Shown: piece after piece, positions 12,077 to 61,664 of the stretch | Position numbering within the stretch: the first letter of the stretch is position 1 | How the letters are laid out: each line of letters begins with the position of its first letter | Assembly: GCA_965242965.1 (NCBI GenBank) | Contig: OZ251518.1 | Span: 3,968,001 to 4,032,000 of the forward strand | Source: Candidatus Poribacteria bacterium | GTDB lineage: Bacteria; Poribacteria; WGA-4E; WGA-3G | Length of the DNA stretch: 64,000 bases | Direction of reading: 5' to 3' | The notes under the pieces: model-generated | The model's database searches: none | The model's input: the letters and a program-made list of their open reading frames with translations, nothing else | What the model was told of the DNA's origin: nothing | Translations under genes and position numbers: made by a program

Positions 12077-12388
12077 GTGGGTGTTTCATATTTCGATGCG
12101 TTCGGTAGGCGAGCCCTCCGAGTCTTGATTTTTTCCCGTAGCGCGGGGACCTGTCCCCCGCGAGTGCCATCGTCACGATGTGTGTTTCCCCCACTGTAGT
12201 TTGTGATCGCCTGATCACAAACGGGTCAGGATCAGGCGATCCTGACCTACAGGGTCTGGCGCGCGGACGATGGCGAGGGACAGGCCCTCGCCCTACGGTG
12301 AAGTGCCGTTTTTTATCGTAGCGCGGGGGCCTGTCCCCCGCGAGCGTTGGAGTGCGCGGACGATATCAAGACCAGGGGGGCTCTCCTA
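12077..12388. repeat. Composite REP-like array with left TIR
   Basis: GTGGGTGTTTCATA at 12077; the last hairpin overlaps the ogt stop codon. Confidence 0.85.
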
Positions 12389-18766: not shown

Positions 18767-19310
18767 TAGGTCCGTAGGACCTTAATGTCTATAGAACGCG
18801 CGCCCGCGAAGAACCCTAAGGTCCTTTAGGTCCTTAATAGTTTGTGCCATGTCCGCGCGTGTTTTTTATTAAGGACCTAAAGGCCCTTGGAAACGGGACG
18901 ACACGTTTTTCTATAGACATGTAGGTCCTAAAGGCCCTAAAACGATGCATCCGAAAAAACGCCACCCCCTCACCGTAGAGCGAGGGCCTGTCCCTCGCCA
19001 TGCACCGGTCTGCGCAGCAACCATCCGGAGTCTCTGGGCTGTGGGCGTTTTCCGCAGCGGTCGAGAGATCGCGGGGGACAGGCCCCCGCGCTACGGTGAA
19101 AAAAACGCCGTCCCTTCCCGTAGGGCGAGGGCCTGTCCCTCGCCATCGTTCGGCTGTCAGAACGCATCCCCCCTGTAGTTCAGGAGCACCAGTTCCTGAC
19201 CCGTTCGGGAGCGGGCGCTCCCGAACTACAGAGGTGGGCACAATGCCTGCTGGTATTCGCCTGTCCTCCAAGGCGGGATAAATACCGAAACGGAGTTATG
19301 AAACACCCTC
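18767..19310. repeat. Composite REP-like array with right TIR
   Basis: AGGTCC/TATAG block, A- and C-family hairpins, TATGAAACACCCTC at 19297-19310. Confidence 0.85.
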
Positions 19311-21108: not shown

Positions 21109-21922
21109 GAGGGTGTTTCATAAATCAATCAACGCCGCGGTGCAAAGAACGGTTGGTGTTACCGTAGGGCGAGGGCCTGTCCCTCGCCATCGTTTTGCTA
21201 TCAGAGTGCCTCACCCCTGTAGGTCAAGATCGCCTGATCTTGACCCGTTCGGGAGCAGGCGCTCCCGAACTACAGTGGTGGGCCCGATGCCTCCCCGGTA
21301 GGAGAGACCTCCCGGTCTCGATTTTCAACATATCGGGACAAGGATGTCCCTCCTACCCGAACCGATGCCTCCCCGGTAGGAGAGACCTCCTGGTCTCAAT
21401 GCTCCCTAGTCTCATACCCCCGCGCTACGGTGAAAAAAACGTTTTTCGTTTTCTTCAGGTCCTTTAGGTCCTGAATGTCTATAGCATGCGGCGATCTGAA
21501 GAGCTCTAAGGTCCTTTAGGTCCTTAATGTGTTTTGCGGTGCGGCGTGTTTTTTTTATTAAGGACCTAAAGGACCTTGATAGAGGTCTCCACGTTTTTCT
21601 ATAGACATGTAGGTCCTAAAGGACCTAAGAGCGGCTTCTTGACACCGACGATCGCGGGGGACAGGCCCCCGCGCTACGTTGAAAATGACGGTTTTCGTTC
21701 CCGTAGGGCTTGGGCCCTCGGATGCCACACGCGCATCCGAGCGGGTGTCCCTCGCCATCGTTCAGCTATCAGAACGCGTCCCCTCTGTAGTTCAGGAGCG
21801 CCTGCTCCTGACCCGTTCGGGAGCGGGTGCTCCCGAACTACAGTGGTGGGCCCGATGCCTTCTGCATCGAGACCAGGATGTCCCTCCTACCGGGATGCCA
21901 TCGAAATATAAAACCCCCCTTC
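21109..21922. mobile_element. Composite MITE-like REP array with both ends (right end degenerate)
   Basis: Left GAGGGTGTTTCATA, right TATAAAACCCCCCTTC; flanks TGTTTATT / AGTTCATT (6 of 8 match). Confidence 0.7.
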
Positions 21923-29848: not shown

Positions 29849-30343
29849 GGTAGGAGAGACCTCCTGGTCTCGATGCAATGGGGCGGCGGCGGCAGAAAGC
29901 CCCTTCATCGTAGGGCGAGGGCCCTCGGATGCCACACGCGCATGCGAGCGGGTTTCCCTCGCCATGCTGCGATCGCGGGGGACAGGCCCCCGCGCTACGG
30001 TGAAAAAAACGGTTCCCTTCACCGTAGGGCGAGGGCCTGTCCCTCGCCATCGTTTTGCTGCCAGACCCCTTCACACACATCGTGACGATGGAGTTCGCGG
30101 GGGACAGGCCCCCGCGCTACGATGGAAAAAACATGCCGATTACCGTAGGGCGAGGGCCTGTCCCTCGCCATCGTTTTGCTGCCAGAACCCTTCACCTCTG
30201 TAGGTCAGGATCGCCCGATCCTGACCCGTTCGGGATTAGGCGATCCCGAACTACAGCGGTGGGCCCGATGCCTTCCGGTAGGAGAAACATCAAGACAAGG
30301 AAGTCTCTCCTATCGGGAAGGCATTGATATATGAAACATCCTC
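29849..30343. repeat. Composite REP array with right TIR, bracketed by a 22-bp direct repeat
   Basis: TATGAAACATCCTC 30330-30343; TAACATATTGCGCGTTAAAAAG at 29809-29830 and 30353-30374. Confidence 0.88.
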
Positions 30344-44111: not shown

Positions 44112-44190
44112 AATGTGGTTCCTTTTTTAATCCGCAGGCGCGATGTCAAACCGCGCCTGCGGGGGACGTTTTGCGTAAATCCTGTTAAGT

Positions 44191-44618
44191 GAGGGGTTTC
44201 GTAAATCCCCGTAGGAGAGACCTCCTGGTCTCGATGCAATAGGGCGGCGCGCCTCCCAGGGCCGCGGCGGCAGAAGGTCCCCCTTTTACCCCTGTAGGTC
44301 AGGATCGCCTGATCCTGACCTGTTTGTGATCAGGCGAGCACAAACTACAGACAGGGAAACACACATCCTAACGATAGAGATCGCGGGGGACAGGCCCCCG
44401 CGCTACGGTAAAAAACGGTTCCCTTCACCGTAGGGCGAGGGCCTGTCCCTCGCCATCGCCCGCGCAATCCAATGATCGCGGGGGAAACCCGCTCGGATGC
44501 GCGTATGGCATCCGAGGGCCCCCGCGCTACGGGAACATCGAGACCGGGAGGTCTCGCCTACCGGAAATCGAGCCCCGAGGTCTCGCCTACCGAACACATC
44601 GAAATATGAAACATCCTC
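44191..44618. mobile_element. Composite MITE-like REP array with both TIRs and a 7-bp target duplication
   Basis: GTTAAGT | GAGGGGTTTCGTA ... TATGAAACATCCTC | GTTAAGT. Confidence 0.8.
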
Positions 44619-44695
44619 GTTAAGTTAGCGGCGAAGGCAGATGTGCTTCCGCCGCGGAAATCGGTTTTTTCCTTACCGATAAAATGATACTAAAT

Positions 44696-46081
44696 TCATT
44701 CCGAAATGTCAAGCGAAAATTCTGTCAACAACGCCGCCAACGGGTTGCAGAGAATCTCTTCGCTTTCGGCATCTATCAAGGAATGACACGTGCCATCTTT
44801 CAACTCATAAACGGCGACTTCGTCGGCAGAGAGCCAACACCGGTCTGGTGCAAGTTTGGCTATCCGGGCCGCCGCCGCCACCGAGGACTGCTTTTTTATC
44901 GCTGGTGCCGCACGCAACAAGGTTTGAAGCACCGTCAACACATACGGACTATGCGTTGTCAGCACGACTTGGGATTCCTCCGTGTTCAGCAGCAACGCGA
45001 TACACTCGATGAGTTCCTTCTGCGCGGTTGGATAGAGACTCGCCTCGGGTTCTTCGATTACCCGAAATACGGTGTCATTGTATATCACCGTGAAGAAGAT
45101 GTCTTGGAGGAGGCGGAGCGTGTTCTGTTCGCCGGCTGAAGCCGCGAGTAACGGGACCGAGCCTTCGCCGGTAGGCTGATTGAACAGCGATTTTTTGTCA
45201 TCTGCCGTTCCGTATGTGCCTTTGAGGATGCGCGCCATCTTTTCCATGAGGAATTCTGCGGCAGGCGCATCGAGTTCATCATCCTCATCATCCTCATCAT
45301 CCTCGCCTACCCGTTCGGCGAGGAGGGCATGGTAGTCTTGCTCGTTAAAGGTTTGCAAGAACTCCTCGTTTTTCTCCAAGAGCTGCGCCAGGAGGTAGCT
45401 CTGCACGGCGGGTGCAGGGTTGCGTTCTACATCGCGTTCAAAGAGCTCCCTTTTGATGCCGCCGTAGAAGACGCGTTTGAAGGCATCCGGATAGTGTGAG
45501 ATAATCTGCCGGCCTGCCGGGATATAGAGGTTTCTGAACTGCGTGCCGAAGAACCGTTCGGTGATGCCGCGAATCCCGGTCCCGAGGAAGATTTCAAGGA
45601 ACATCCGTTCACCGGGGGTAAACGTATTCGCTTGTTGGGAAGTGCCCTCCTTGAGAGACTTCTCCTTCGCCTTGCGCAGGCCAGCCTGATACTCCTTGTA
45701 AACTTCGTTCAGCTCGTCCGTGAGAGCGGGGAGCGTGATGTCGAGCTGCCCATCGTCCGTTAAAGCGAGGGTGACAGCACTTTCATCGGTATAGTGATAC
45801 GTAATCTCAAACGGACCGAGGTGGGTGAGTTCACCAAAAAAGAGGCGGAATTGCTGCGCAAAGTGGTGCTGGAACGTTGGAACGAGTTGCTGCTCGCCTT
45901 CCCAATTCACCTCCCAGAGCCATTTGCGGAGGGAGTAGGTGACGTTGTGGAAGAAGTAGAGCAGTTGCGCGAGCGTGCTTTTGCCACTGGCCTGTTCGCC
46001 GATGAGCACGACAAGTTTCTTATCCATGTCAAGCTCCGCCTCGCGGGTATGAATGAAATTTTTCACGATGAGTTTTGGCAT
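44696..46081 (-). CDS. ABC/AAA_21-type ATPase (AbiEii/OLD-related)
   Basis: Walker A 'GEQASGKS', signature 'SAGEQ', Walker B 'IEEPE..LYP', H-loop 'TTHSPY'. Confidence 0.82.
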   Translation of the reverse strand: MPKLIVKNFIHTREAELDMDKKLVVLIGEQASGKSTLAQLLYFFHNVTYSLRKWLWEVNWEGEQQLVPTFQHHFAQQFRLFFGELTHLGPFEITYHYTDESAVTLALTDDGQLDITLPALTDELNEVYKEYQAGLRKAKEKSLKEGTSQQANTFTPGERMFLEIFLGTGIRGITERFFGTQFRNLYIPAGRQIISHYPDAFKRVFYGGIKRELFERDVERNPAPAVQSYLLAQLLEKNEEFLQTFNEQDYHALLAERVGEDDEDDEDDELDAPAAEFLMEKMARILKGTYGTADDKKSLFNQPTGEGSVPLLAASAGEQNTLRLLQDIFFTVIYNDTVFRVIEEPEASLYPTAQKELIECIALLLNTEESQVVLTTHSPYVLTVLQTLLRAAPAIKKQSSVAAAARIAKLAPDRCWLSADEVAVYELKDGTCHSLIDAESEEILCNPLAALLTEFSLDISE

Positions 46082-46090
46082 TTTTACTTC

Positions 46091-47473
46091 CTATAAATCG
46101 TTAGTATCAATGAGACAGACACCCTCTTCGGCTGCGCGGTGTTTGAGTGCATCTGTCCAGCCGCTGACAGAAAATAGCAGATATCGGGGATGCTGCCGCC
46201 ATGCATCTGGGACTTTCTGCGCGTTTTCCATGAGGCGAATCAGGACATTTTCACCGACCGGGGTATGCCACCATTTGCACTCCCCGAACGAGTGGCTTCC
46301 GTCAAGATTTTCTGTCAACACGTCAATCTCAACGTCGGAACCCCAGTGCGCGCCCACTCGTTGAGGGGCAACCTTGAGTTTCTCGTCCCAATGAAAGGTG
46401 ACATATTGGCGGCAAATGTCTTCAAAAACCGTTCCCATGTATTGCGAAAGGTTGGGCGCGATGCGCTGCTGATAGACGAAATCGGCGTTCCCGGATTCGA
46501 TGAGACTCCGATTCGGTAGCACAAACCGAAACCAAAAATTGACGTAGTTGTCGGCAATTTTGTAGAGCCCTTTTCTGCTCTTTTGCGGGGCGCGTTCGGT
46601 GATAGATGTCTCCCGTTTCACCAGTTTCAAGTCTCGCAGCACCGTCAGATATTTATTCGCTTGTGTCGGTTCAAGTCCGACGCGCTGGGAAATCTCATTA
46701 AGTCGCGTCGCGCCGCCGGCGATGGCGTGCAGGAGGCTAGCATACGTGCGCGGTTCTCGGAGTTCCATCCGCAGCAGGAAGTTCACCTCATCGAACAGAT
46801 AACTTTGTGGCGCGAGCAGCGCGTCTTTGATGTTCTGTTCCAGCGTTTTCTCACTCGCGAATTGGTTGAGATACGCCGGAATCCCGCCGAGGATGCCGTA
46901 GGCGGTTATCTTCTCCTTCGCCGAGTAGGATGGCAAAAACCGGCCACTCTCGCGGTAAGAGAGCGGCAACAGCTGCTGCTGTCCCGTGCGGCGGCCATAC
47001 AGCGGTGAACGTTCCGCCAGCACTTCTCGCTCCATGAAACTCACCTGCGAACCGCACAGAATCAGGAAGAGTTTGCTGTGTCTCCCATGCAAATCCCAGA
47101 AACGTTGGATTTGCGATGGCAATGCTCCATTATCTTCGCATAGATACTGAAATTCGTCAAGCACTAAGATGAGGCGTTCCTGTTGTGCCTGCTGCGCGAA
47201 ATAGATGAGTGCCGATTCCCAGTCCGAAAACGTAAGGCTTTGGAGCAGCGCATCATCAATGACGTGTCGTGCTGCTTCGGTGAGCTGCTGCAGCTGGTCT
47301 GGTGCTTTCAACTGGCTGGCGAGAAAATAGATGCTCCGTTTGCCTTTGCAAAACTGCGTGAGGAGTTCGGTTTTTCCGACGCGTCTTCTGCCATACAGCA
47401 CGAAGAATTCGGCGGCATCTGAGTGCCACATCCTGTCTAATGCAGTTAATTCTTGTTCGCGATTGATGAACAT
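46091..47473 (-). CDS. Archaeal-type ATPase with wHTH and C-terminal DUF234-like PD-(D/E)xK domain
   Basis: 'FINREQEL', 'YGRRRVGKT', 'LDEFQ', 'SPLYGRRT', 'GGIPAYL', 'FWFRF', 'EIDV...GECKW'. Confidence 0.88.
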   Translation of the reverse strand: MFINREQELTALDRMWHSDAAEFFVLYGRRRVGKTELLTQFCKGKRSIYFLASQLKAPDQLQQLTEAARHVIDDALLQSLTFSDWESALIYFAQQAQQERLILVLDEFQYLCEDNGALPSQIQRFWDLHGRHSKLFLILCGSQVSFMEREVLAERSPLYGRRTGQQQLLPLSYRESGRFLPSYSAKEKITAYGILGGIPAYLNQFASEKTLEQNIKDALLAPQSYLFDEVNFLLRMELREPRTYASLLHAIAGGATRLNEISQRVGLEPTQANKYLTVLRDLKLVKRETSITERAPQKSRKGLYKIADNYVNFWFRFVLPNRSLIESGNADFVYQQRIAPNLSQYMGTVFEDICRQYVTFHWDEKLKVAPQRVGAHWGSDVEIDVLTENLDGSHSFGECKWWHTPVGENVLIRLMENAQKVPDAWRQHPRYLLFSVSGWTDALKHRAAEEGVCLIDTNDL

Positions 47474-47572
47474 AGGTTTGTCTCTCCGTTTACCGATCTG
47501 TTGGTGTGCAGCAGCTTGCCATCGGGTTGCATTCTGAATACTTTGGCTGCACTATGCGCGTCAACTTTGGTG

Positions 47573-47615
47573 TTATACTCTAAAGTATTATACGCTAAAG
47601 TATAATAAATGTCAA
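47573..47615 (-). promoter_or_regulatory. Consensus promoter overlapped by a tandem palindromic operator-like repeat
   Basis: TTGACA-17-TATAAT (minus strand); TTATAC(T/G)CTAAAGTA x2. Confidence 0.7.
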
Positions 47616-47653
47616 GGTTCCGACTTTGTCTGAGACATTCAGCCCGATGTCTG

Positions 47654-47935
47654 GGTAGGAGGGGCATCCTTGTCCCGATATGCCCTCTTGGTAGGAGGAA
47701 CATCCTTGTCCCGATACCGATGTTTGGGTAGGAGGGACATCCTTGTCCCGATACGGCATTGCATCGAGACCAGGAGGTCTCTCCTACGGGGGAAAATCGA
47801 GACCGGGAGGTCTCTCCTACTGGGTATCAAGACCAGGAGGTCTCTCCTACTGGGTATCAAGACCAGGAGGGCTCTTCTACCGGCAATAGCGCGCGGGCTG
47901 TCCCCGCGCCGTTGCACGATTTATGAAACACCCTC
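47654..47935. repeat. REP array (D- and B-family) with right TIR
   Basis: GTAGGAGG..CATCCTTGTCCCGATA x3; GAGACC.GGAGGTCTCTCCTAC-type x4; TATGAAACACCCTC 47922-47935. Confidence 0.88.
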
Positions 47936-47937
47936 GG

Positions 47938-48450
47938 TTAAATTCCCATCCGAAGCGCGACAGCCGCCAGCAAAATCAGCAGCGAAACAACACCCATTAG
48001 ACTAGATACCACCGACATTTGCGAACGGAGCCGCTGAACATCCGACGGAAGTTCCTCCAGATTGATATCTAACTCCGAAATCGCGGCAGACATCTTCGGG
48101 CCGAAGACAAAGCCGTGCAACGCGGTAAGGATAATTAGCACGACGAAAAGCATTAGTTTGATAAACAGCGTGCGCATAAACGCGCCGATTAACTCCGGCG
48201 GCGCAGTAGTCGTCAGCACGCCCGACATGAAAATGTTAAAGATGCCGGTGAAGAATAGCACGCCGACACAACACCACACGACAGGCTCAAACCGTTTGCC
48301 TATCTCTGCTAAAATCTGAACCCGTTGGACAGGCGGAAGACTCTTTCTGAAATAGGGAACGATGACCAGGGCAATGATGAGGTTACCGCCGATCCAGACA
48401 ACCGCGGCGATGACGTGTAACCAAAGGATAAGGAGCGAGAGGAGTTCCAT
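47938..48450 (-). CDS. Four-TM membrane protein (CopD/DUF4149-like)
   Basis: 'WLHVIAAVVWIGG', 'LFFTGIFN', 'IKL.L', 'ALH.F..GP'; start MELLSL with RBS AAGGA. Confidence 0.7.
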   Translation of the reverse strand: MELLSLLILWLHVIAAVVWIGGNLIIALVIVPYFRKSLPPVQRVQILAEIGKRFEPVVWCCVGVLFFTGIFNIFMSGVLTTTAPPELIGAFMRTLFIKLMLFVVLIILTALHGFVFGPKMSAAISELDINLEELPSDVQRLRSQMSVVSSLMGVVSLLILLAAVALRMGI

Positions 48451-48554
48451 TGTATTGTGTTTCCTTTCTGAAGTTGAGAAGCCTTGTTCTGTAGTTCGGA
48501 CTCGCCTGAGCCCGAATGGGGCAAAATCGGACGAGACGCTACAGACGCTTGTTT

Positions 48555-50198
48555 TTAAGAATTTCCTATCTGTTGAATAACCTTCTCGGCGCGGGAAATT
48601 AACGCGTGCCGCTCCTCTGCCGGAAGCGGCGCGGGGGAAAACCGATAGTAATCGCACTGCGCCAAGATATCCACGACTTCCTGAATTGTGGCATCCGAGA
48701 GCCCCGCCTGCGCGCAAGTTTCGCGCACCGCATCAGGACTGGCAGAGCCCGCGACAAGCGAGATGCCTAACGTTTCACTGAGATATTCATATAAGACTTG
48801 GGCGATGGCATTCCCGAACGCCGTGGCGTTGTCTGCACGACTCTCCAAGATTTCCGTGAGCGTCGCGAGAGCCTCCTGTTCTGGCGGCACGTCGTGCTCT
48901 TCAATTTCCGCACGCGCGCTTGCCCGACGGCGATACCATAAATAGCCTCCCGCAACAAAACCAATAACGAGCACGGAGAGCCCTATTAAGAGCAACCACT
49001 TCCCCCACGCCACGCCATCGGGTTCAACCTCAACCAGCGCGCTCGGTTTCGGTGTCACGGTAAACGGAATCGGTGCTGTCTCTGTCGTTTGGTAGGTGCC
49101 GAGTTCCGGCGCGAAATAGGTATAAGAAATCGCAGGGATGCGCACTGTCCCGGCTTGCGACGGCACAAGCGCGTAGGCATAAACGTAACTCTGCTGCGTA
49201 GAACCGACACCGGGATTCGGACCGGATACGGTGACACCCGGTATCGCTGGAATCTGTGGCGCGGTGAGCGTCTGCATGTTGCCGCGTCCAGAGATACGCA
49301 CGGATAACGTGAGTCCTCTTCCCACTTCAACGCGAGTTTTGTCGATTTGCGCGGTGATTTGGTAGTCGCCGATAGCACCAGAAAACGGTGCGCTGTTGGA
49401 AGCTGCGTCTACCGGCAGAGCCGGCAGTGGCCGCACAGACAACGTGAGCGGTTTGGTTTTCAACGTTTTTGGAGCTCGGTTGAGCGGCAGCCTCAGTGAA
49501 GCGGGTTCAATGACAATACTGCCCGTTTTCTGTGGATAGAGCCGCCGCACCTCCGCCTGCACATGAAACGTTTGTCCGCGAATCCGCTTTGTCTCGTTCA
49601 GCGGCGCGGGGAGCTCTGTCACTAAAAAACCTGAAAAATCGGGAAGCGTGGCGACTGGCGATTCTCGCGTCGGCAACACGGTGGTGTAGAGATAGCGGAA
49701 CGTATACGTCACCTCCTGATTGAGATAGGGGTTTGAAGGCGTTACCTCCGCCTCCACTTGATGAACCCCATCAGTGGAGGTATCCCGATACGTGTCTTCA
49801 CCACTCACCCGAACAGTGCCGGGATTCGCGAAATAGGGAGTGCCTTGATATGAGAAACGGACATCCGAAAGCGCGAAATCACCTATCTCCTGTGGAATCA
49901 GTTCATAATACCACGCCTTGGAGACAGCGATTTTATCGCCTTCTAGCCGCGGCGTGGTGGAAGAACGCAGCGGCACGGCGAGAAACGCAGGCAGAAAATT
50001 GAAGATTGGCGCATCAATATGTTCAATGAATGTCTTCCCGGAGAGCACAAGCTCCAAAGTCGCTTTCTCGCTAAATTGGATGTCCCGCGGTTGGACTACG
50101 GCGGAAACATCAATTTCTGCCGCACCGATGCCCACGAGAAAAAATAACGCGAAAGACGTGGTGATGAGTTTTTGATGATGCGTTGAGAAACGTTGCAT
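48555..50198 (-). CDS. BatD / oxygen-tolerance family protein
   Basis: Signal peptide, three beta-sandwich repeats, 'FSGAIG.Y', 'ISGRGN', 'YF.PE.G.Y', TM, 'CD..RFSP'; follows a BatC-like gene. Confidence 0.75.
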   Translation of the reverse strand: MQRFSTHHQKLITTSFALFFLVGIGAAEIDVSAVVQPRDIQFSEKATLELVLSGKTFIEHIDAPIFNFLPAFLAVPLRSSTTPRLEGDKIAVSKAWYYELIPQEIGDFALSDVRFSYQGTPYFANPGTVRVSGEDTYRDTSTDGVHQVEAEVTPSNPYLNQEVTYTFRYLYTTVLPTRESPVATLPDFSGFLVTELPAPLNETKRIRGQTFHVQAEVRRLYPQKTGSIVIEPASLRLPLNRAPKTLKTKPLTLSVRPLPALPVDAASNSAPFSGAIGDYQITAQIDKTRVEVGRGLTLSVRISGRGNMQTLTAPQIPAIPGVTVSGPNPGVGSTQQSYVYAYALVPSQAGTVRIPAISYTYFAPELGTYQTTETAPIPFTVTPKPSALVEVEPDGVAWGKWLLLIGLSVLVIGFVAGGYLWYRRRASARAEIEEHDVPPEQEALATLTEILESRADNATAFGNAIAQVLYEYLSETLGISLVAGSASPDAVRETCAQAGLSDATIQEVVDILAQCDYYRFSPAPLPAEERHALISRAEKVIQQIGNS

Positions 50199-50246
50199 AT
50201 TTTTTCAGGTATCTGACAGATAGAGATGTCCGTCCTTACGGCACGA

Positions 50247-50849
50247 TTACCAATCCTTCTCCCGGCGATAGCCGCTTTTGAATTGCCGTTGCAACGACTT
50301 GCGCCGGATGCTGTTTTCCTTTTCGCGCAGCTGCGCCAATAAACGGCGTGTCTCAGATTCGGAAACGCTCGGGTTCGGGCGTTCCTGCCGCTCAGTTTTT
50401 TGTTGCCCACCTACTTTCGGCTGATTTTGTTGCTGCTGGAGTGCCAATGCAAGGTTGTGCTTGGCATCCGCGTCGGTTGGTGTTAATTGCAGCGCGTTCC
50501 GATAAGCCTCAATTGCTTTGTCAAGTTCGCCTGATTGAAACTGCGCGTTGCCGAGGTTATAGTAGGTTGCGGCGCGCGGTTCGCCTGTCAGAAGCGATGC
50601 CTGAAACGCCGCCGCCGCCATTTCAAATTGCCCCTGTTTGTAGAGCGCGGTACCGAGGTTATAGTGCGCGAGCGGATTATCGGGCTTCTGGCGCACCGCC
50701 TGTTGGAAGGCGTTCATTGCCGCGTCGTAATTGCCTCGCCGATACGCCACGTTACCAGACTGCATCTCGCGATGCCACGTCCCGAACCATCCGCCGAAGA
50801 CAATAGCGGATATGATGATAAGTGAGAGAGTGAGGGTGCGTTTCCACAT
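50247..50849 (-). CDS. BatC-like TPR protein
   Basis: 'GN.AY..G.Y..A', 'YNLGNA', 'DAKHNL.LA', Q-rich linker, C-terminal 'EKDW'. Confidence 0.8.
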   Translation of the reverse strand: MWKRTLTLSLIIISAIVFGGWFGTWHREMQSGNVAYRRGNYDAAMNAFQQAVRQKPDNPLAHYNLGTALYKQGQFEMAAAAFQASLLTGEPRAATYYNLGNAQFQSGELDKAIEAYRNALQLTPTDADAKHNLALALQQQQNQPKVGGQQKTERQERPNPSVSESETRRLLAQLREKENSIRRKSLQRQFKSGYRREKDW

Positions 50850-50913
50850 GGTATCTATTATATACGATAACGCTGTGGATTGCAAGAAATTGTGCAAACA
50901 GGCTGGAACAAAT

Positions 50914-51441
50914 GAGAGTGTTTCATATCTCGATGGCTTCCCGGTAGGCGAGACCTCCTGGTCTCGATGTTCCCGTAGCGCGGGGGCCTATCCCCCGTGA
51001 GTGCTCAAGAACCGTTTTTTTTATCGTAGCGCGGGGGCCTGTCCCCCGCGATCGTCCATTGTCAAGTTATGTTTTTAGGGCCTTTAGGTCCTACATGTCT
51101 ATAGCAACACGTGTCGGCCCGTTTTCAAGGTCCTTTAGGTCCTTAATAAAAAACACGCGGACTTGGCAAAACCTATTAAGGACCTAAAGGACCTTAGGAT
51201 TCTTCGCGGGTGCGCGGGCTATAGACATTAAGGTCCTACGGACCTAAGAGACGTTTTTTCAAGGGGGGGGCTGCCGCCGCTGTCCCGGTAGGCGCGCCGC
51301 CCTATTGCATCGAGACCGGGAGGTCTCTCCTACCGGCAGAAATCGGGACAGGTAGGAGGGACATCCTTGTCCCGATACGCACAGGAACAAAACGCATCGA
51401 GACCGGGAGGTTTCTCCTACACGGTTTTATGAAACACCCTG
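50914..51441. mobile_element. Composite MITE-like REP array with both TIRs
   Basis: GAACAAAT | GAGAGTGTTTCATA ... TATGAAACACCCTG | AAACAAAT (7 of 8 match). Confidence 0.8.
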
Positions 51442-51545
51442 AAACAAATACCAGAATTCTCCATCAATAAGCGCGATTTGAAATCGCGCAGGCGGGATGC
51501 GTTCTACGTGAGTTCTCTCAAAAAAAGCGGACAAAAAAGGCGGAC

Positions 51546-51578
51546 AAAAAAAGGCGGCTTGGGTAAACAAGCCGCCTT
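51546..51578 (-). terminator. Intrinsic terminator
   Basis: AAGGCGGCTTG-6 nt-CAAGCCGCCTT stem followed by a T-tract on the minus strand, just downstream of the 51595 stop. Confidence 0.75.
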
Positions 51579-51594
51579 CTGGAAAGCGAACGCG

Positions 51595-52425
51595 CTATTT
51601 GCGCCGGATATCAGCCCACGTCGTCGTCAACTTCCCTTTCGGTTCAACCGGGGTAAGCGGCGTGATTTCATCAAAGAAACTCTGCTTATCGGTTGCATCC
51701 TTGGGGTAAATGGTGACAGCGTCGTGCGTGGCATCGTCAAAGTGCAGGTTGAAATAGGCGGAGCCGCCGCTTTCACCGCACCGGTAGACAAGGACGTTCG
51801 CGCCTTTTTGCAACTCAACTTCAACGTTATAGTCGACTTGTTGCGCTGCCCCTGTCCAGGCGGAGTTGTTATACCATTTTTCACCGTTAATCCAGATGTG
51901 CGCGTGGTCATCGTGTGCGGGCGACATCACGGAAGTCATGTCGCTCGGTGCATCGATAACAATAACAGCGTAGGTGTCAATGTTATCGGCAGGGCCGCCG
52001 CGGTTCATATTGTCGCCATCGGCCGGATCGATCTCAAAGACGGTCCAGGCGCGTGTGCCGCCGTGGTCATCGCCCCAGACGACATCGGTAGTCTGCGTGA
52101 GAAGCAAGCCTTCCAGCGTGGAGAGGGAGGCATCGGTGATTTTACCGCCGGTGCCTTCATCCATGAAATCAACGAGGGCCGAGACCGCGAATCCGCCGTT
52201 ATTTTCGTAGTTACCATCGGGCCCATACCACTTGGTAATCCACGTTTCAACATCGGCGTGGTCTTCGTTGAGTGCGGCCTCTGTCGGATTTTCCAATTGC
52301 GCGTCTTCGGCGAGCGGGCCGCCGGTAATGTTCACAACGCCTTGCGCGGCGGCGAAGTGCGAGAAACTGACTGCAACGGCGAAAAGCATCACCATTGCGA
52401 GCGTCAAACGAGAAAATGTGTTCAT
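51595..52425 (-). CDS. Secreted PA14-like beta-sandwich protein with C-terminal VEPxGKLTTxW motif (paralog 1)
   Basis: Signal peptide; 'AHDD.A.IWINGE..VELQKGANVL'; RBS AAGGAG. Confidence 0.75.
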   Translation of the reverse strand: MNTFSRLTLAMVMLFAVAVSFSHFAAAQGVVNITGGPLAEDAQLENPTEAALNEDHADVETWITKWYGPDGNYENNGGFAVSALVDFMDEGTGGKITDASLSTLEGLLLTQTTDVVWGDDHGGTRAWTVFEIDPADGDNMNRGGPADNIDTYAVIVIDAPSDMTSVMSPAHDDHAHIWINGEKWYNNSAWTGAAQQVDYNVEVELQKGANVLVYRCGESGGSAYFNLHFDDATHDAVTIYPKDATDKQSFFDEITPLTPVEPKGKLTTTWADIRRK

Positions 52426-52615
52426 TTGAACTCCTTCTATTATTTACGGTAAATTTTGCGCGGGAACAATTTTGTTGCCGCGCGTCTAACAAGACAGAAC
52501 TGACGCGAAAAATGTATACGTTCCGCGTCTGTCCTGCCATTTGATGACATAATTATAGTTTTTCAACACAAATTAGTCAAGAAAAAACGGATTTTCCGTG
52601 CGAACGGATTCGCGG

Positions 52616-53446
52616 TTAGCGATTGCGCTTAATAGCCGCCCACCTTGTTGTCAACTTTCCGGCAGGTTCCACCGGAAGAATGCCGGCGACTTCGTCGAAG
52701 AAGCTGTCCTGGTTCCGCGCTTTGTCGGGATAGATTTTGGCGACTTTGTGCGTGTTGTCGTCAAAGTGGAGGTTCATATACGCGGAACCTCCGCTTTCGC
52801 CGCACCGGTAAAGCACGACATTCGCGCCTTTTTGCAGGTCGACCTCGATATTGTAGTCAACTTCCTGCGCGGCACCTGTCCAAGCGGAGTTGTTATACCA
52901 CTTTTCACCGTTGATCCAGATTTGCGCGTAGTCATCGTGCGCGGGCGACATCACGGCTTTCATAGCCTGGGGCGCAGCCACGACGACGATACCGTAAGTA
53001 TCAATGTTATCGGCGGGCCCGCCGCGGTTCATATTGTCGCCGTTCGCCGGTTCAAGTTCAAAGACGGTCCACTCGCGGGTGCCCCCGTTCTGCTTATCCC
53101 ACTCCATTTTAATATTTTGGGTCTTCTGCAAACCGGCGGCGGTGGAGAGATCAACCTGTGTCAACTTGCCGTTAGTGCCTTCGTCAATGAGGTCCTTCGG
53201 CGCGGAGGCGGGGAATCCACCGTTGTTTTCGTAGTTACCGTCAGGCCCATACCACTTGGTAATCCACGTCTTCTCCCCGGCATGGCTTTCGTTCAGCGGA
53301 GCTTCTCCCGGGTTTTTCAGCCAATCGGCCTCTTTTATTGGGCCGTCTTTGATGTTGACTTTCTGCGCGAACGCAAGGTGCGAGCTGCCCGCAGCCAGCG
53401 CGAAAATTAGCGCGATTGCGAGCAGAAAGGAACAAAATTTTTTCAT
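52616..53446 (-). CDS. Secreted PA14-like protein with C-terminal motif (paralog 2)
   Basis: Collinear with neighbours; RBS AAGGAG. Confidence 0.75.
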   Translation of the reverse strand: MKKFCSFLLAIALIFALAAGSSHLAFAQKVNIKDGPIKEADWLKNPGEAPLNESHAGEKTWITKWYGPDGNYENNGGFPASAPKDLIDEGTNGKLTQVDLSTAAGLQKTQNIKMEWDKQNGGTREWTVFELEPANGDNMNRGGPADNIDTYGIVVVAAPQAMKAVMSPAHDDYAQIWINGEKWYNNSAWTGAAQEVDYNIEVDLQKGANVVLYRCGESGGSAYMNLHFDDNTHKVAKIYPDKARNQDSFFDEVAGILPVEPAGKLTTRWAAIKRNR

Positions 53447-53606
53447 AAAGGTTTTTCTCCTTGTCGGTTATGTGCTTCCGATACATGTCTGTCATTCAGG
53501 AACGATGCGCCTGAACAGTCAAAATCGGGAGCTCTTAAACTACAGGTGGGGTATGAGTTGTCAGGACAGATAGTTAACGACATCTGTCCTGACATCCGAT
53601 TCTCGG

Positions 53607-54440
53607 TTAGCGGTTGCGCTTAATATCGCCCCAGATTGTCGTCAATTTTCCGGCAGGCTCAACGGGTAGGACACCTGCAACTTCCCTGAAGAAACTGGCC
53701 TGGTCCTTCGCCTTGTCCGGATAGATGTCGACAACTTTGTCGGTTGCATCGTCAAAATGCAGGTTCATATACGCGTGCCCGCCGGATTCCCCGCACCGAT
53801 AGAGTAAAACGTTCGCGCCTTTTTGCAACTGAACTTCAACGTTGAAGTCGACTTGTTGCGCGGCGCCGGTCCAGCGGGAATTGTTATACCACTTTTCGCC
53901 GTTGATCCAAATTTGCGCGTGATCATCGTGCGCGGGGGACATGACGGCTTTCATGTCCTTGGGTGCATCGATGACACAGATGGCATAGGTATCCATGTTA
54001 TCGGCTGGGCCGTCCCTGTTCATGTGGTGCGCGTCCGCGGGGTCCAGTTCAAAGACGGTCCATTTGCGCGCGCCGCCGTTTGCGCCTTTCCAACCGATAT
54101 CGACAGTCTGCGTCAGTTGCAGCCCTTCAACGGTAGAGAGGGAGACCTGTGTCAACTTGCCGTTGGTGCCTTCGTCAATGAGGTCCTTCGGTGCGGAGGC
54201 ACCGAATCCGCCGTTGTTTTCGTAGTTCCCATCGGGGCCGTACCACTTGGTGATCCACGTCTTCTCACCGGAATGGTCTTCGTTCAGTTCGGCTTCCGCC
54301 GGGTCCTTCAGCCAATCGGCCTCTTTTATCGGGCCGTCTTTGATGTTGACCTTCTGCGCGAACGCAGAGTCGATTTGACCCCCCCCGATCAGGGCGAAAA
54401 CCAGCATCGCTGCGAGGGTAAACAAATAAAATTTTTTCAT
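53607..54440 (-). CDS. Secreted PA14-like protein with C-terminal motif (paralog 3)
   Basis: Start MKKFYLF after AGGAGG; collinear with neighbours. Confidence 0.75.
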   Translation of the reverse strand: MKKFYLFTLAAMLVFALIGGGQIDSAFAQKVNIKDGPIKEADWLKDPAEAELNEDHSGEKTWITKWYGPDGNYENNGGFGASAPKDLIDEGTNGKLTQVSLSTVEGLQLTQTVDIGWKGANGGARKWTVFELDPADAHHMNRDGPADNMDTYAICVIDAPKDMKAVMSPAHDDHAQIWINGEKWYNNSRWTGAAQQVDFNVEVQLQKGANVLLYRCGESGGHAYMNLHFDDATDKVVDIYPDKAKDQASFFREVAGVLPVEPAGKLTTIWGDIKRNR

Positions 54441-54646
54441 TCTGAACTTGCCTCCTGAGTTGGTAAGACAATTTTTCTTCAACTTTATGCCGTATTATGG
54501 CAAACTTCCAAAAAATTGTCAAGGAAAAATTCAAAAAAGGAATTGCTAATTAGCAATTGCAAATAATGATACAATTTTGTCAAAAAATTGTCAATAAGAT
54601 TTTTTGTCTATCCAGAGACATTCAGTATTCTGCTGCCCAGTTAAGG

Positions 54647-54924
54647 GAGGGTGTTTCATATCTCGATGACTTCCCGGTAGGAGAGACCTCCCGGTCTCGA
54701 TGTTCCCGTAGCGCGGGGGCCCTCGGATGCCACACGCGCATCCGAGCGGGTTTCCCCGCGTTGTCTCAAGCACCGTTTTTTTTATCGTAGCGCGGGGGCC
54801 TGTCCCCCGCGATCGTTGGGGTGCGCGGACGATGGCGAGGGACAGGCTCGCCCTACGATGAAGGGGGGCTTTCTGCCACAGCGGCCCCGGGTACTGCATC
54901 GAGACCGGGAGGGCTCTCCTACGG
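54647..54924. repeat. Composite REP array with left TIR
   Basis: GAGGGTGTTTCATA 54647-54660; first ~70 bp nearly identical to the array at 50914. Confidence 0.85.
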
Positions 54925-54976
54925 TAGAACGCGGGTGGGTGTATCAACGTTCGGTGTTTTCCGTTTGACGCGAGCG

Positions 54977-56017
54977 TTACCGGCTTTGTTTCTTCTGCGA
55001 GGCGTGCTTTATCTTTCCCCACTGCGTCGGCAACTTCCCGTGCGGTGAGACAGACAACGCGCCTTCTACCCAGTCGGGCCACTTCTCATCACTCGGTTCG
55101 CGTGTGATGCGTTTCAGACTCCGCGTGTCAAACGTATAGCGATAGAGGTTATAATTCGGGGTGGCTTTATCCTTTAACATCAGTGAAAAGAGAATGGCAC
55201 GATCCTTCTCCATCCAACATGCAGTGGATCCTACCCAATTGTTACCGAGTCTGTCATTAATATCTGTAATTTCCTTTTTCCGGCGGCCGATCCGCTGAAC
55301 GATGAGTTTCTCGAGATGTCCATCTTTAAGCCACTTGACTTCAGCGAAGAGGATCCGTTGTCCATCCGCAGACCAACGCGGAAAGAACCGGAGGGTGGGG
55401 AGGTCGCCTACCTCTGGATCCGGGAGAAGCGGACGCTGGTGCTGCCCATCCGCAGACATCACGTAAATATTTTTCGGGTTGAGCCCGGCTTTGATGCAGA
55501 GGAACCGCTCAAAAGCCAGTTGCGTGCCATCGGGGGACCAGTCCGGGGCAACAGAGCCTCTCCCGTTATCGTCTGCCAGGGTTAACTGTGTAACGGCACC
55601 CGACACCAAATCAAGGACGTGCACCTCACCTCTTCCACTTCGATCGCTCATAAAGGCGATTTTTGTGCCATCAGGAGACCAGGAGAGATAGTGATCAGTG
55701 ACGTTGTTATGGGTGAGTCGTTGTGGTTCTGTTCCATCTGCATTCATCAGGAACAGTTCCGACGAGGTTTGTATCTTGTCCTTGTCCATGTATCGCGTAA
55801 AGGCGATTTTTGTGCCATCGGGAGACCAGCGCGGGTAACTGTCTTTCGCCGTGGTATTGTGGGTCAGCCTGCGTCTGCCAGAGCCATCATCGTTCATGAC
55901 ATAAATGTCATTGTCCACACAAAAGACAATCTTCGCATCAACGCAGACCTGCGCACCGGCGAACAAGAGCAGACTGCAAGCGAAGAAAAATATGAAGGCG
56001 TTTTTTTGACTATTCAT
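54977..56017 (-). CDS. Secreted TolB-like PD40 beta-propeller with the same C-terminal motif
   Basis: Repeated 'P.WSPDG.KIAF'; ends 'SVSPHGKLPTQWGKIK'; TTGACA-17-TATAAT upstream at about 56105-56133. Confidence 0.85.
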   Translation of the reverse strand: MNSQKNAFIFFFACSLLLFAGAQVCVDAKIVFCVDNDIYVMNDDGSGRRRLTHNTTAKDSYPRWSPDGTKIAFTRYMDKDKIQTSSELFLMNADGTEPQRLTHNNVTDHYLSWSPDGTKIAFMSDRSGRGEVHVLDLVSGAVTQLTLADDNGRGSVAPDWSPDGTQLAFERFLCIKAGLNPKNIYVMSADGQHQRPLLPDPEVGDLPTLRFFPRWSADGQRILFAEVKWLKDGHLEKLIVQRIGRRKKEITDINDRLGNNWVGSTACWMEKDRAILFSLMLKDKATPNYNLYRYTFDTRSLKRITREPSDEKWPDWVEGALSVSPHGKLPTQWGKIKHASQKKQSR

Positions 56018-56275
56018 CTGTAGACTCCTCAGGGAATAGAGAAATCTGCCCTTACGTTTGCGGCACTTTGCGTGTGCGTTGCCAAACCTTTCGTATTACG
56101 GTTAATTATACCACAAAAAGTGTTGGATGTCAAATTTTTGGAAAAATCCGTGAAAAATCTGCATCGTGGATTAATCTATCACATTTCGCTGTTTTTTCTC
56201 AAGTTTCCGATATTCTTTTTCTGTACCCACGTCAACAGAGGAAAACTAAAGATTCTGACATTTTCTAGATTTTTC

Positions 56276-56304
56276 TTGACAAAATGTAAAAAAAATGTTA
56301 CGAT
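56276..56304 (+). promoter_or_regulatory. sigma70 promoter of the def operon
   Basis: TTGACA-17-TACGAT with TG extension. Confidence 0.6.
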
Positions 56305-56339
56305 ATTAAAATACGTTAAAAAACAACAGGACTAACAAA

Positions 56340-56951
56340 ATGTCAAAACGAAAAAGAAAATCGAAAGACTCGCAACCAGCTGCCGATGCCGTGGTGGAAG
56401 AAGAACCGTGTTTGCGTCAGACGGCACCGCTACAACTCCGTTACTACGGCGACCCGGTCCTCCGCAAAAAGGCGGAGCCGGTAGCGGAAATTACCGAGGC
56501 GGAACTCCAACTTGCGGAGGAGATGCTAATTACGATGTATGCCACCGGGAACGGTATCGGACTTGCCGCGCCGCAGGTAGGCGTTCTGAAACGCTTCCTT
56601 ATCGTTGACGTGAGTGCGGTTGACGACGAAGAATACGAACCGGTGATGTTGTTTAACCCCGAAATTCTGGGCGAGGAAGGGGAAATTGTCGCGGAAGAAG
56701 GGTGCCTCAGCATTCCGAATGTCACCGCCGATGTGAAACGTCCGGAGAAAGTGGTAGTTGAAGGGATTAACGTTGCGCGTGAACAGGTTCGGATTGAGGC
56801 AGAGGGCTTGTTGGCACGCGCGCTGCAACACGAGATCGATCATCTCAACGGGGTGCTGTTTATCGACAAACTCAGCGGCTTGAAACGACAGCTGCTCGCT
56901 GGCAAGTTGCGGCAGATTCAATTAGCGGAACGCCCGGGAGATAACGGATGA
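56340..56951 (+). CDS. def: Peptide deformylase
   Basis: GIGLAAPQ, EGCLS, QHEIDHLNG. Confidence 0.96.
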   Translation: MSKRKRKSKDSQPAADAVVEEEPCLRQTAPLQLRYYGDPVLRKKAEPVAEITEAELQLAEEMLITMYATGNGIGLAAPQVGVLKRFLIVDVSAVDDEEYEPVMLFNPEILGEEGEIVAEEGCLSIPNVTADVKRPEKVVVEGINVAREQVRIEAEGLLARALQHEIDHLNGVLFIDKLSGLKRQLLAGKLRQIQLAERPGDNG

Positions 56952-57667
56952 AAACCGCCGTCATATTGCTTATTCTCGTGGGTCTCCTGCTGCCGAATGC
57001 CTTAGTGTTTGGAGATCTCACGTTTGAAGATGTTCAGAAAATTCGGGACACTCTCAAACCGGAATTTGACGCAATAAACAAGCTGTTTGACGATGTGAAC
57101 CAACGCCTTGGCGATGTGAACCAACGCTTCAATGTTGTGTGGATGTTCCTGATTGCGGTGCTTGTGGCGGTTATCGGGATGCCCCTCTATCGCGACCGGA
57201 AAAAGGAGCGTAACGGAACGCCCGGGAGGCAACGAATGAAAACCATCGTATTGCTTATTTTCGTGGGGCTCCTGCTGCCGAGTGCCTTAGTGTATGGAGA
57301 TCTCACGTTTGAGGATGTTCAGAAAATTCGGGACACTCTCAAACCGGAATTTGACGCAATAAACAAGCGGTTTGACGATGTGAACCAACGCTTCAATGTT
57401 GTGTGGATGTTCCTGCTTGCGGTGCTTGCGGCAGTTATCGGGATGCCCCTCTATCGCGACAGGAAAAAGGATCGCGAACAGGATGAGAAAATTGCGGCAC
57501 TCACCCGAATCGTTGAGGAACAGCAAGCAGAGATAGAGCAACAGAAAGCGGAAATCTCCAGCCAGCGCGCGGAACTCAACAGCCTGAAAACGCACGTAGA
57601 TCCGCCCGCAGCCGCGCCTAAGCACACAACCGCACTGTCAATAGAATCAAAAGAGGTTAACGGATGA
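56948..57667 (+). CDS. Membrane coiled-coil hypothetical protein formed by an in-frame 288-bp tandem duplication
   Basis: Units start at ATG 56948 and ATG 57236 and are near-identical; ATGA overlaps with def and larE. Confidence 0.75.
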   Translation: MKTAVILLILVGLLLPNALVFGDLTFEDVQKIRDTLKPEFDAINKLFDDVNQRLGDVNQRFNVVWMFLIAVLVAVIGMPLYRDRKKERNGTPGRQRMKTIVLLIFVGLLLPSALVYGDLTFEDVQKIRDTLKPEFDAINKRFDDVNQRFNVVWMFLLAVLAAVIGMPLYRDRKKDREQDEKIAALTRIVEEQQAEIEQQKAEISSQRAELNSLKTHVDPPAAAPKHTTALSIESKEVNG

Positions 57668-58527
57668 GAAATGCCATGGTGAAAACATTGGAATTGCCAC
57701 ACCTGCAAGCGAAAGTAGACGCACTTTATACTTGCTTGCGCGATTATCAGAAAGTTATCGTAGCCTTTTCGGGGGGCGTGGATAGCACTTTCCTCGCGGA
57801 GGCGGCGCAACACGCGCTCGGCGATGATGCGCTCGCTGTCACTGCCATCTCCGATTCCTATCCCATCCGCGAAATGCGGGCGGCGCAGGATATCGCCAAA
57901 CAGATCGGCATCCGTTTTGAAACGGTGCATACCGAAGAATTGGAGCTGGAAGGCTACGCCAGCAACCCGACGAATCGTTGCTACTTCTGTAAGACAGAAT
58001 TGTTCGATAAACTCCGTCCCATCGCCGAGAAATACGATGTCGGCACTATCGTCTACGGCGCGATTCCGGACGATGTCGGAGATCATCGGCCGGGGATGGA
58101 CGCGGCGAAGCGGATGGGCATCCAGGCACCGCTAATTGATGTCGACTTGACGAAGGCGGAGATTCGCGAGATTTCAAAGGCGTGGCAGCTTCCGACGTGG
58201 GATAAGCCGGCGTTCGCGTGCTTGTCCTCCCGTTTTCCGTACGGCATGCGGATTACGCGCGAATTGCTGCGGCAAGTCGATGCCGCCGAGCAGTTCCTTT
58301 ACGATTTAGGCATCCGGCAATTCCGCGTGCGTCACCACGGCGAACTGGCCCGCATTGAATTAGAACCGGCGGAGATGTCGCGATTCCTGCGGACGGATGC
58401 GCGGCAGCAAGTCAGCGCGCATTTCAAAACGTTGGGATACGCGCATGTCACGCTAGATTTGCAGGGTTACCGTTCAGGTAGCCTGAATGAAGGCGTTGCG
58501 AAGATTCTCAGGGGCAAAGCCGCTTAA
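57664..58527 (+). CDS. larE: ATP-dependent sacrificial sulfur transferase LarE family
   Basis: PP-loop 'AFSGGVDS', 'RCYFCK', 'RPG', 'CLSSRFPYG', 'RVRHH', 'GYRSGSLN'. Confidence 0.9.
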   Translation: MRNAMVKTLELPHLQAKVDALYTCLRDYQKVIVAFSGGVDSTFLAEAAQHALGDDALAVTAISDSYPIREMRAAQDIAKQIGIRFETVHTEELELEGYASNPTNRCYFCKTELFDKLRPIAEKYDVGTIVYGAIPDDVGDHRPGMDAAKRMGIQAPLIDVDLTKAEIREISKAWQLPTWDKPAFACLSSRFPYGMRITRELLRQVDAAEQFLYDLGIRQFRVRHHGELARIELEPAEMSRFLRTDARQQVSAHFKTLGYAHVTLDLQGYRSGSLNEGVAKILRGKAA

Positions 58528-58529
58528 TT

Positions 58530-58907
58530 GAGGGTGTTTCATAACTCAAGAAACCGTCCGGTTACCGTAGCGCGGGGGCCTGTCCCCCGTGATCGTCCCG
58601 TAGGAGAGCCCTCCCGGTCTCGATGCAACTCTAAACCTTATTAAGGTCCTACGGACCTTGATAGGGTGCGGCACGTTTTTCTATAGACATGTAGGTCCTA
58701 CGGACCTAAAAGAGCGGTTCGGTGGACCGCAGCATGGCGAGGGACAGGCCCTCGCCCTACGGTGAAAGGGGACCGTTCTGCGGCCAAGAAACCGTCCGGT
58801 TACCGTAGCGCGGGGGCCTGTCCCCCGCGATCGTCCCTACCAAGAGGGCTCGGTAGTCGCCTGCTCCAGGGGCGATAACTACCGAAACGGAGTTATGAAA
58901 CACCCTC
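58530..58907. mobile_element. Composite MITE-like REP array with perfect TIRs and 8-bp target duplication
   Basis: GCTTAATT | GAGGGTGTTTCATAACTC ... GAGTTATGAAACACCCTC | GCTTAATT (18-bp perfect IR in this copy). Confidence 0.88.
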
Positions 58908-58927
58908 GCTTAATTGAGGTGGCATCC

Positions 58928-61357: not shown

Positions 61358-61664
61358 GGTAGGCGAGACCTCCTGCGTCTCGATGTGCCCGTAGCGCGGG
61401 GGCCCTCGGATGCCATACGCGCATCCGAGCGGGTTTCCCCCGCGAGCTCCATCGTCACGATGTGTGTTTCACCCTCTGTAGTTTGTGATCGCCTGATCAC
61501 AAACAGGTCAGGATCAGGCGATCCTGACCTACAGGGGTGAGGCGGTCTGACAGCCAAACGCATGGCGAGGGACAGGCCCTCGCCCTACGATGAAGGGACG
61601 GCGTTTTTTTCACCGCAGCGCGGGGCATGTCACCGCGACACCAAGCGATTTATGAAACCTTCTC
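61358..61664. repeat. Composite REP array with degenerate right TIR
   Basis: TATGAAACCTTCTC 61651-61664; subterminal CACCGCGAC..AGCGATTTATG is the reverse complement of the 3065 end. Confidence 0.85.

Follow-up and report, generated by a model that had tools for sequence, protein, structure and literature searches.

Among the miniature inverted-repeat transposable elements (MITEs) that descend from insertion sequences of bacteria, Correia/NEMIS, RUP and Nezha are listed in the passages of PMC3733652 that deal with such elements. The passages of that paper on repetitive extragenic palindromes (REPs) describe REPs tagged with GTAG, REP-associated tyrosine transposases (RAYTs) and RAYT-like genes flanked by terminal inverted repeats (TIRs), and contain no description of REP blocks enclosed in shells of the DDE type. 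Shells of this kind are the subject of the present work. They number several hundred in the genome of a Candidatus Poribacteria bacterium, a sponge symbiont, and were first noticed in a 64-kb stretch of it (G000:C1:3968001–4032000, hereafter the window; the assembly has 5.70 Mb in two contigs, 54% G+C, and is 94.7% complete). In all probability, they are MITEs of an IS982-like DDE insertion-sequence family of Poribacteria, which carry a block of REPs as cargo and are now without a resident transposase. Although real and well-behaved, they would be an uncommon form of a familiar kind of bacterial mobile DNA, and a clean natural example of selfish DNA of one class (REPs) being spread by that of another (a DDE MITE).

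The shells resemble the MITEs derived from insertion sequences in that they are non-coding, 130–800 bp long, present in high copy number and presumably moved in trans. They differ in that the interior consists of REP hairpins and is not a leftover of an insertion sequence, and in that about 1000 ends are found in a genome with no intact transposase. With REPs, REPINs and bacterial interspersed mosaic elements (BIMEs), as treated in parts of PMC3733652 and PMC3337134, they share interior units that are GTAG/CTAC palindromes present in hundreds to thousands of copies, one of which (R4) flanks a Y1_Tnp gene. Unlike the shells, REPs and REPINs have no such TIRs or target duplication; here, REP blocks sit inside a DDE-type shell that has both. 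A link between DDE elements and REPs is also found in IS1397 and ISKpn1, insertion sequences that target REPs, but the REPs are carried inside the element here and the target is an AT-rich palindrome. The literature searched, which did not cover subscription journals, holds no relevant description of Poribacteria MITEs, Poribacteria insertion sequences or IS982 MITEs.

Ends, target duplications and empty sites

The 14-bp sequence that forms the ends of the shells (GAGGGTGTTTCATA) occurs 13 times in the window at up to two mismatches, against 0.27 expected, and a count of 13 was reached in none of 100 shuffles. The matches start at 3065, 10150, 12077, 21109, 50914, 54647 and 58530 on the plus strand and finish at 19310, 30343, 44618, 47935, 51441 and 58907 on the minus strand. 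A search that tolerated four errors was noisy and was used for two degenerate ends only (44191 and 61664); with these, every end named in a preliminary description of the window was located. Three shells are complete, and each is bordered by the duplication that had been reported for it:

44191..44618, shell A, 428 bp, left end degenerate (GAGGGGTTTCGTAA), flanked by GTTAAGT at 44184-44190 and 44619-44625
50914..51441, shell B, 528 bp, flanked by GAACAAAT (50906-50913) and AAACAAAT (51442-51449)
58530..58907, shell C, 378 bp, both ends perfect, flanked by GCTTAATT at 58522-58529 and 58908-58915

Genome-wide, the 14-mer has 1026 matches at up to two mismatches, 530 of them exact, while ten shuffled motifs yield 11–63. 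A plus end is directly followed by a minus end in 314 pairs shorter than 3 kb (median length 385 bp, mode 250–300 bp). Positions 1–14 of the ends are 90–99% conserved and conservation extends to ~17–21 bp. The three subterminal types noticed in the window recur throughout the genome, with AATCGCT at 316 ends, ACTCCGT at 215, TYTCGAT at 189 and other sequences at the remaining 306; the most frequent pairing is that of AATCGCT with ACTCCGT (77 pairs). Paired shells cover 2.2% of the genome. For the purposes of annotation, the elements explain a large part of the intergenic DNA that is filled with repeats in this lineage.

The target duplication was evaluated in 299 adjacent plus/minus pairs of at most 1100 bp, with a control in which the right flanks were re-dealt and the target bias was kept. 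This amounts to the genome-wide tabulation of flanks proposed in the preliminary description. The 8-bp flanks are identical in 64 pairs and differ by one mismatch in 36, compared to means of 0.56 and 3.9 for re-dealt partners (maximum of 12 in any of 1000 runs). Exact duplications of 8 bp are seen in 64 pairs, those of 9 bp in 27, and those of 7 and 10 bp in four each, and 99 of the 299 pairs are verified by an exact duplication of 7–10 bp. The initial reading of a 14-bp TIR with duplications of 7–8 bp was thus right about the presence of both features and needs adjustment in their sizes, the duplication being mainly 8 bp and the repeat at least 17 bp. The logo of the flanks is a palindromic, AT-rich target, A-N-T-T-A-A-N-T. 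A target so biased could by itself produce matching flanks by chance, but the re-dealt partners, which retain the bias, give 0.56 exact matches where 64 are observed, and empty sites with a single target copy exist. The chance reading is refuted by these results and we assign it practically no probability.

The window is collinear with one contig of G001 and one stretch of G002, two genomes of the same genus with genes ~80–91% identical. All three complete shells are absent from the orthologous places, where one copy of the duplicated bases is kept. The site of shell A in G002 (L019) contains a single GTTAAGT and no element, the orthologous G001 site of shell B (L017) lacks the shell and has near-contiguous flanks, and the site of shell C is empty in both G001 and G002, with a single G(T)TTAAT(T/C). 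Together with the two gene-carrying copies described below, five of the five same-genus sites tested are empty with a single target.

A filled and an empty allele of shell C are also found in metagenomes. A 2191-bp contig from a separate study (record 25, metagenome run X5) joins window position 58520 directly to 58907, so that its gap corresponds exactly to shell C plus one 8-bp copy; it has 50 differing letters over 1215 aligned (~96% identical). The right junction of shell C in its filled state is spanned by a contig of run X16, and the contigs of runs X14 and X1 break at the element. Empty alleles, the search for which had been suggested along with the original description, therefore exist for all three window copies and in a metagenome contig, and the hybrid reading has withstood the refutation that was named for it in that description.

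A different situation is seen at G000:C1:3012258-3012735, where G000 and G001 (L045 3327-4189) both have an element at the same AGTTAATT/ACTTAATT site. The two elements are in opposite orientation and have different lengths (478 bp in G000 and 863 bp in G001), and one end of the G000 element has, instead of its tip, a copy of 12 bp of the flanking DNA. Either the site is a hot spot that received more than one insertion, or the element was inverted in place.

The cognate insertion sequence and the missing transposase

At up to one mismatch, the end motif is found 900 times in G000, eight times in G001 (a fragmented assembly) and once in G002 (four contigs), and G000 is the extreme in the number of ends among the 41 genomes counted. 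In G022, which belongs to another genus of the same family, the 14-mer stands at both ends of seven identical 1107-bp elements with ends GAGGGTGTTTCATAAAT..., duplication AGATAATT and a single open reading frame (ORF) of 332 codons. Its product matches Pfam DDE_Tnp_1_3 with 39.3 bits (cut-off 27) as well as DDE_Tnp_1. Eight copies from eight genomes were compared: seven are 1102–1137 bp long and one is broken, with mismatched ends and a length of 937 bp. All eight insertion sequences have the ends GAGGG(T/G)G...CATAA, and six of the eight have an exact, AT-rich 8-bp duplication. The full-length transposases that were aligned have in common the motifs D..A.WS, AD.GY and IEP.F, which contain candidates for the catalytic D, D and E.

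The insertion-sequence family is present in 22 of 60 relatives and is unevenly distributed between genera (12 of 15 genomes in g5, 8 of 15 in g2, one of four in g11, one of eight in g10 and neither of the two in the window's own genus). A large protein collection contains 1329 relatives of the transposase, and the few that were named are entered as 'hypothetical protein [Candidatus Poribacteria bacterium]'. The analysis thus delimits an insertion-sequence family that had no name and whose public records read hypothetical protein. Its members resemble IS982 in their size of ~1.1 kb, a single DDE transposase gene of the IS4/IS5/IS982 fold, TIRs and a short duplication of fixed length. The IS982 family has ends starting with AC and a duplication of 3–9 bp, whereas the ends here begin with GAGGG; a further difference is that the transposase scores 55 bits where the curated model has a cut-off of 130, and that its NCBI relatives are hypothetical proteins.

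The preliminary description had argued from the TIR and the duplication that a DDE transposase was involved, and the occurrence of the same ends and an 8-bp duplication around DDE insertion sequences of sister genera bears this out. The ends could instead belong to a tyrosine (HUH) transposase system, either RAYT or a TIR-associated relative of it. The genome does have Y1_Tnp genes, and the relevant part of PMC3733652 describes RAYT-like genes that are flanked by TIRs and whose TIR families are moderately abundant. The intact RAYT-like gene of G000, however, is bordered by R4 REPs and not by the GAGGGTGTTTCATA end, the same end bounds DDE elements in other genera, and the 8-bp duplication is at odds with HUH chemistry. 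In the HUH chemistry of IS200/IS605, an 8-bp target duplication is not expected. We regard a tyrosine transposase origin of the ends as very improbable.

One other relative, G049, contains 76 ends of the variant GAGGGGTGTGCATAA, which form a separate MITE family alongside intact insertion sequences. In a sample of 13 short copies (258–355 bp), nine have an exact 8-bp duplication. The short copies have 18 bp in common with the insertion sequence of the same genome, and a 345-bp form is equivalent to the 258-bp form plus an insert holding a GTAG...CTAC hairpin. MITE formation is therefore usual for this insertion-sequence family.

An autonomous insertion sequence with these ends, which the preliminary description had proposed to look for, is thus available in sister genera, but only decayed fragments of it are found in G000. 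A tblastn search located two pieces of the transposase at C1:2371353-2371663 (residues 1–36 and 188–241; 43–47% identity) and only short N-terminal pieces elsewhere in the genome. A profile built from eight proteins and run unfiltered against 112,986 six-frame ORFs of at least 30 aa gave four fragment hits and nothing else with E < 1. PF13612, PF01610, PF00872, PF01609, PF12762, PF00665, PF03050, PF13358 and PF13546 have no match in the genome. Six loci retain the first 129–137 bp of the insertion sequence at 70–75% identity.

One of the six loci adjoins the decayed gene at 2371746, and the remains there, G000:C1:2371353-2371746, are a decayed autonomous copy that combines a perfect end, the first 137 bp and the two transposase-gene fragments, with the middle gone; no second end lies within ~750 bp past the last gene fragment (searched to C1:2370600). 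These decayed fragments indicate that the lineage once had autonomous copies.

Several candidates for a transposase source were considered and rejected. Six loci in G019, G004 and G007 with variant ends GAGGGTGGTTCATA have only host-like ORFs beside them. The 53 long plus/minus pairs of 0.85–10 kb in G000 hold host genes, and the multi-copy ORFs of 1482 and 921 aa in or near long pairs are, judged by eye, paralogous secreted repeat proteins and not transposases. A self-comparison of the genome for repeats resembling insertion sequences gave, among the matches listed, only paralogous gene families at 85–93% identity. The large secreted repeat proteins (921–1482 aa) are themselves multi-copy, with genes at L013 1356-5804, L015 1521-4286 and ~10 other G000 loci; the copies are 85–90% identical in DNA, and several are bracketed by shell ends with unlike flanks.

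With ~1000 ends and only decayed transposase fragments, the swarm should be either orphaned or dependent on an outside transposase. The second alternative holds that the swarm is still mobile, with a transposase supplied from an unassembled episome, a phage or co-resident Poribacteria that have the intact insertion sequence. It would account for the empty 58530 allele in a ~96% identical population and the filled junction in another run, for the identical multi-copy insertion sequences with these ends carried by sister genera in sponge metagenomes, and for the exact 8-bp duplication kept in 28 of the 96 pairs with two perfect ends. Recent copying is made less likely, however, by the fact that no two shells are more than 96% alike. 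In addition, the 38-kb second contig contains a single weak match to the end and gave no hit for the transposase, and polymorphism at 96% identity can predate loss of the transposase. We consider continued mobility unlikely and favour loss of the transposase, which would have followed the burst.

Were an outside enzyme involved, REPs, which go with a tyrosine transposase, would be stacked in MITEs, which go with a DDE transposase, and the swarm may move by means of an enzyme of co-resident symbionts or an episome, a combination to which we give a small share of the probability. The shells would then be a community-level vehicle that spreads REPs among sponge symbionts and, occasionally, genes for host interaction (ankyrin) and defence (methylase) too. 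The source of the enzyme for ~1000 ends with no matching transposase becomes testable in sponge metagenomes.

REP hairpins inside the shells

The preliminary description held that the interiors of the shells all differ. This does not apply genome-wide: 113 of 294 shells of up to 850 bp can be aligned with a relative along 90% of the length of both, 180 are singletons, and the largest family has 66 members of 227–369 bp with a 267-bp consensus. This core consensus is a string of GC-rich hairpins tagged GTAG/CTAC (units R1–R4). The REP units are palindromes of 16–27 bp that form doublets and tandem clusters. At up to three mismatches, the genome contains 2611 copies of R2, 547 of R1, 545 of R4 and 110 of R3. 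Depending on the family, 12–52% of the copies are inside paired shells and 48–88% are outside. The shell is therefore one vehicle for REPs among others. Interior bases with at least 20 genomic matches make up a median share of 1.0 across the 99 verified copies; ~25 of the 99 carry the full-length core, and the shorter ones are internal deletions of it.

Element length follows the number of REP-pair modules (consensus positions 164–246), the medians for one to five modules being 292, 405, 475, 631 and 760 bp. In seven pairs of shells with an identity of 88% or more, the difference consists of a single block of 81–425 bp, with breakpoints within REP stems. Both parts of the earlier proposal, a REP cargo in a DDE shell and its later remodelling, agree with these data: the recurrent 267-bp core is built of REP hairpins that are abundant outside shells, and near-identical shells differ by single blocks.

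An apparently intact Y1_Tnp (RAYT-like) gene (47 bits) and a second, broken Y1_Tnp copy are present in G000. The former lies between three R4 units and four more, the two groups being oppositely oriented. This is the classic REP–RAYT arrangement, and it is established for R4 only and not for R1–R3. A long frame upstream of the RAYT-like gene (L012 1920-2523) is REP read-through, and the real product has ~167 aa.

The REPs could also have entered the shells after these had spread. Under such a scenario, the shells are ordinary MITEs, the REPs are later invaders that landed in them, and shell transposition spread no REPs. Most REPs do lie outside paired shells (88% of R2, 66% of R1 and 75% of R4), the longer shells consist of the core plus added REP modules, and the 345-bp variant of G049 differs from the 258-bp one by its hairpin-bearing insert. 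The 267-bp core, however, with its four or five REP hairpins in one constant order, is found full-length at many unrelated loci, in a family of 66 and in ~25 of 99 duplication-verified copies. Because this order is common to many unrelated loci, the REPs were already inside the transposing copy, and we find late invasion improbable.

In the reading that we favour, that of MITEs with a REP cargo, the transposase would recognise the ~17-bp end GAGGGTGTTTCATAAAT on both sides, and the DNA between two ends would be inserted by a staggered cut into the 8-bp palindrome A-N-T-T-A-A-N-T, the repair of which would give the 8-bp duplication. The enzyme that moved these copies probably belonged to the family of the G022-type transposase. 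The interior is a GTAG-tagged REP block and not a remnant of the insertion sequence, and each transposition would therefore also have delivered four or five REPs to another locus. This is relevant to the question of how families of REPs become so numerous and arrive at new sites. The interiors would later have grown and shrunk by duplication, deletion or insertion of REP modules at REP boundaries, and RAYT, or ordinary recombination and slippage, may have carried out this remodelling. Amplification probably took place in the G000 lineage after its split from G001 and G002. The hybrid element proposed in the preliminary description, non-autonomous and with DDE ends that spread a REP cargo, draws support from the cognate insertion sequence, the empty sites and the REP core.

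Several observations pull the other way. The best NCBIfam match of the transposase is IS982, yet its 55.2 bits are below the cut-off of 130. The shells share only ~17–22 bp with the insertion sequences of other genera, and they may or may not descend from the G022-type element itself. An exact duplication is lacking in 200 of the 299 adjacent pairs and ~428 of the 1026 ends are unpaired, which suggests that many copies are decayed, rearranged or mis-paired. Copies of the core are ~80% alike on average and the best pair 96%, so no very recent burst is visible. An intact cognate transposase was not found in an assembly that is 94.7% complete, where its absence is not proven. Finally, no transposition was observed.

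Gene-carrying copies and unpaired ends

Two end pairs in G000 with perfect ends and perfect 8-bp duplications enclose genes and no transposase. They span 2902 and 3920 bp, respectively:

C1:54311-57212, gene-carrying copy 1, a 588-aa protein with ankyrin repeats and a dockerin domain, in which HExxH was recognised by eye
C1:188873-192792, gene-carrying copy 2, a 1022-aa protein with Type-ISP coupler, N6 methylase and Type-ISP specificity domains

Neither site has an insertion in G001, where each contains a single target copy. The element at C1:188873-192792 holds a whole small shell inside its left arm. The two copies behave like mobile insertion cassettes (MICs), a class of elements with which PMC5444012 is concerned. 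MIC231/IS231 is an example of such a cassette. As in MICs, insertion-sequence ends and a duplication surround a passenger gene, a transposase is lacking, and the site is empty in a sister species; the difference is that the arms beside the passengers consist of REP-filled shell sequence here, and that one arm holds a whole small shell. The ends of the shells have in this way moved two protein-coding genes, of the ankyrin-repeat and the restriction-modification type, both of which are classes typical of sponge symbionts.

Promoter-like sequence (TTGACA/TTGATA, a 17-bp spacer and TGGTATCAT) lies within ~20 bp of both insertions, in the flanks G000:C1:54270-54310 and 192793-192840 (L001, L002). 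The AT-rich target may often coincide with promoters. The Type-ISP-like methylase gene (G000:C1:189371-192590) is itself multi-copy, with at least five other loci; it is present in G000, G001 and G002, and the copies have 85–90% DNA identity.

The other ends in the window do not form complete shells:

3065..3078, plus strand, left end with 0 mismatches and no recognisable partner nearby
10150..10163, plus strand, weak left-end-like match with 2 mismatches, maybe a chance occurrence
12077..12090, plus strand, left end; 7.2 kb separate it from the next right end (19310), and the flanks are unlike
19297..19310, minus strand, right end of subterminal type ACTCC
21109..21122, plus strand, left end; 9.2 kb separate it from the next right end (30343), and the flanks are unlike
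30330..30343, minus strand, right end with 1 mismatch
47922..47935, minus strand, right end of type AAATCG that closes a REP-filled stretch
54647..54660, plus strand, left end with no recognisable right partner
61649..61664, minus strand, degenerate right end (GAGAAGGTTTCATAAA)

One of these, the unpaired right end at 47935 (window 47486-47935), sits exactly where gene order breaks in comparison with G002. G001 aligns from 47936 onwards and G002 from 47942. The DNA to the right of 47935 matches G002 near 4,387,600, and that to the left matches it near 4,239,540, ~148 kb away. Unpaired ends may thus be marks of rearrangements between copies.

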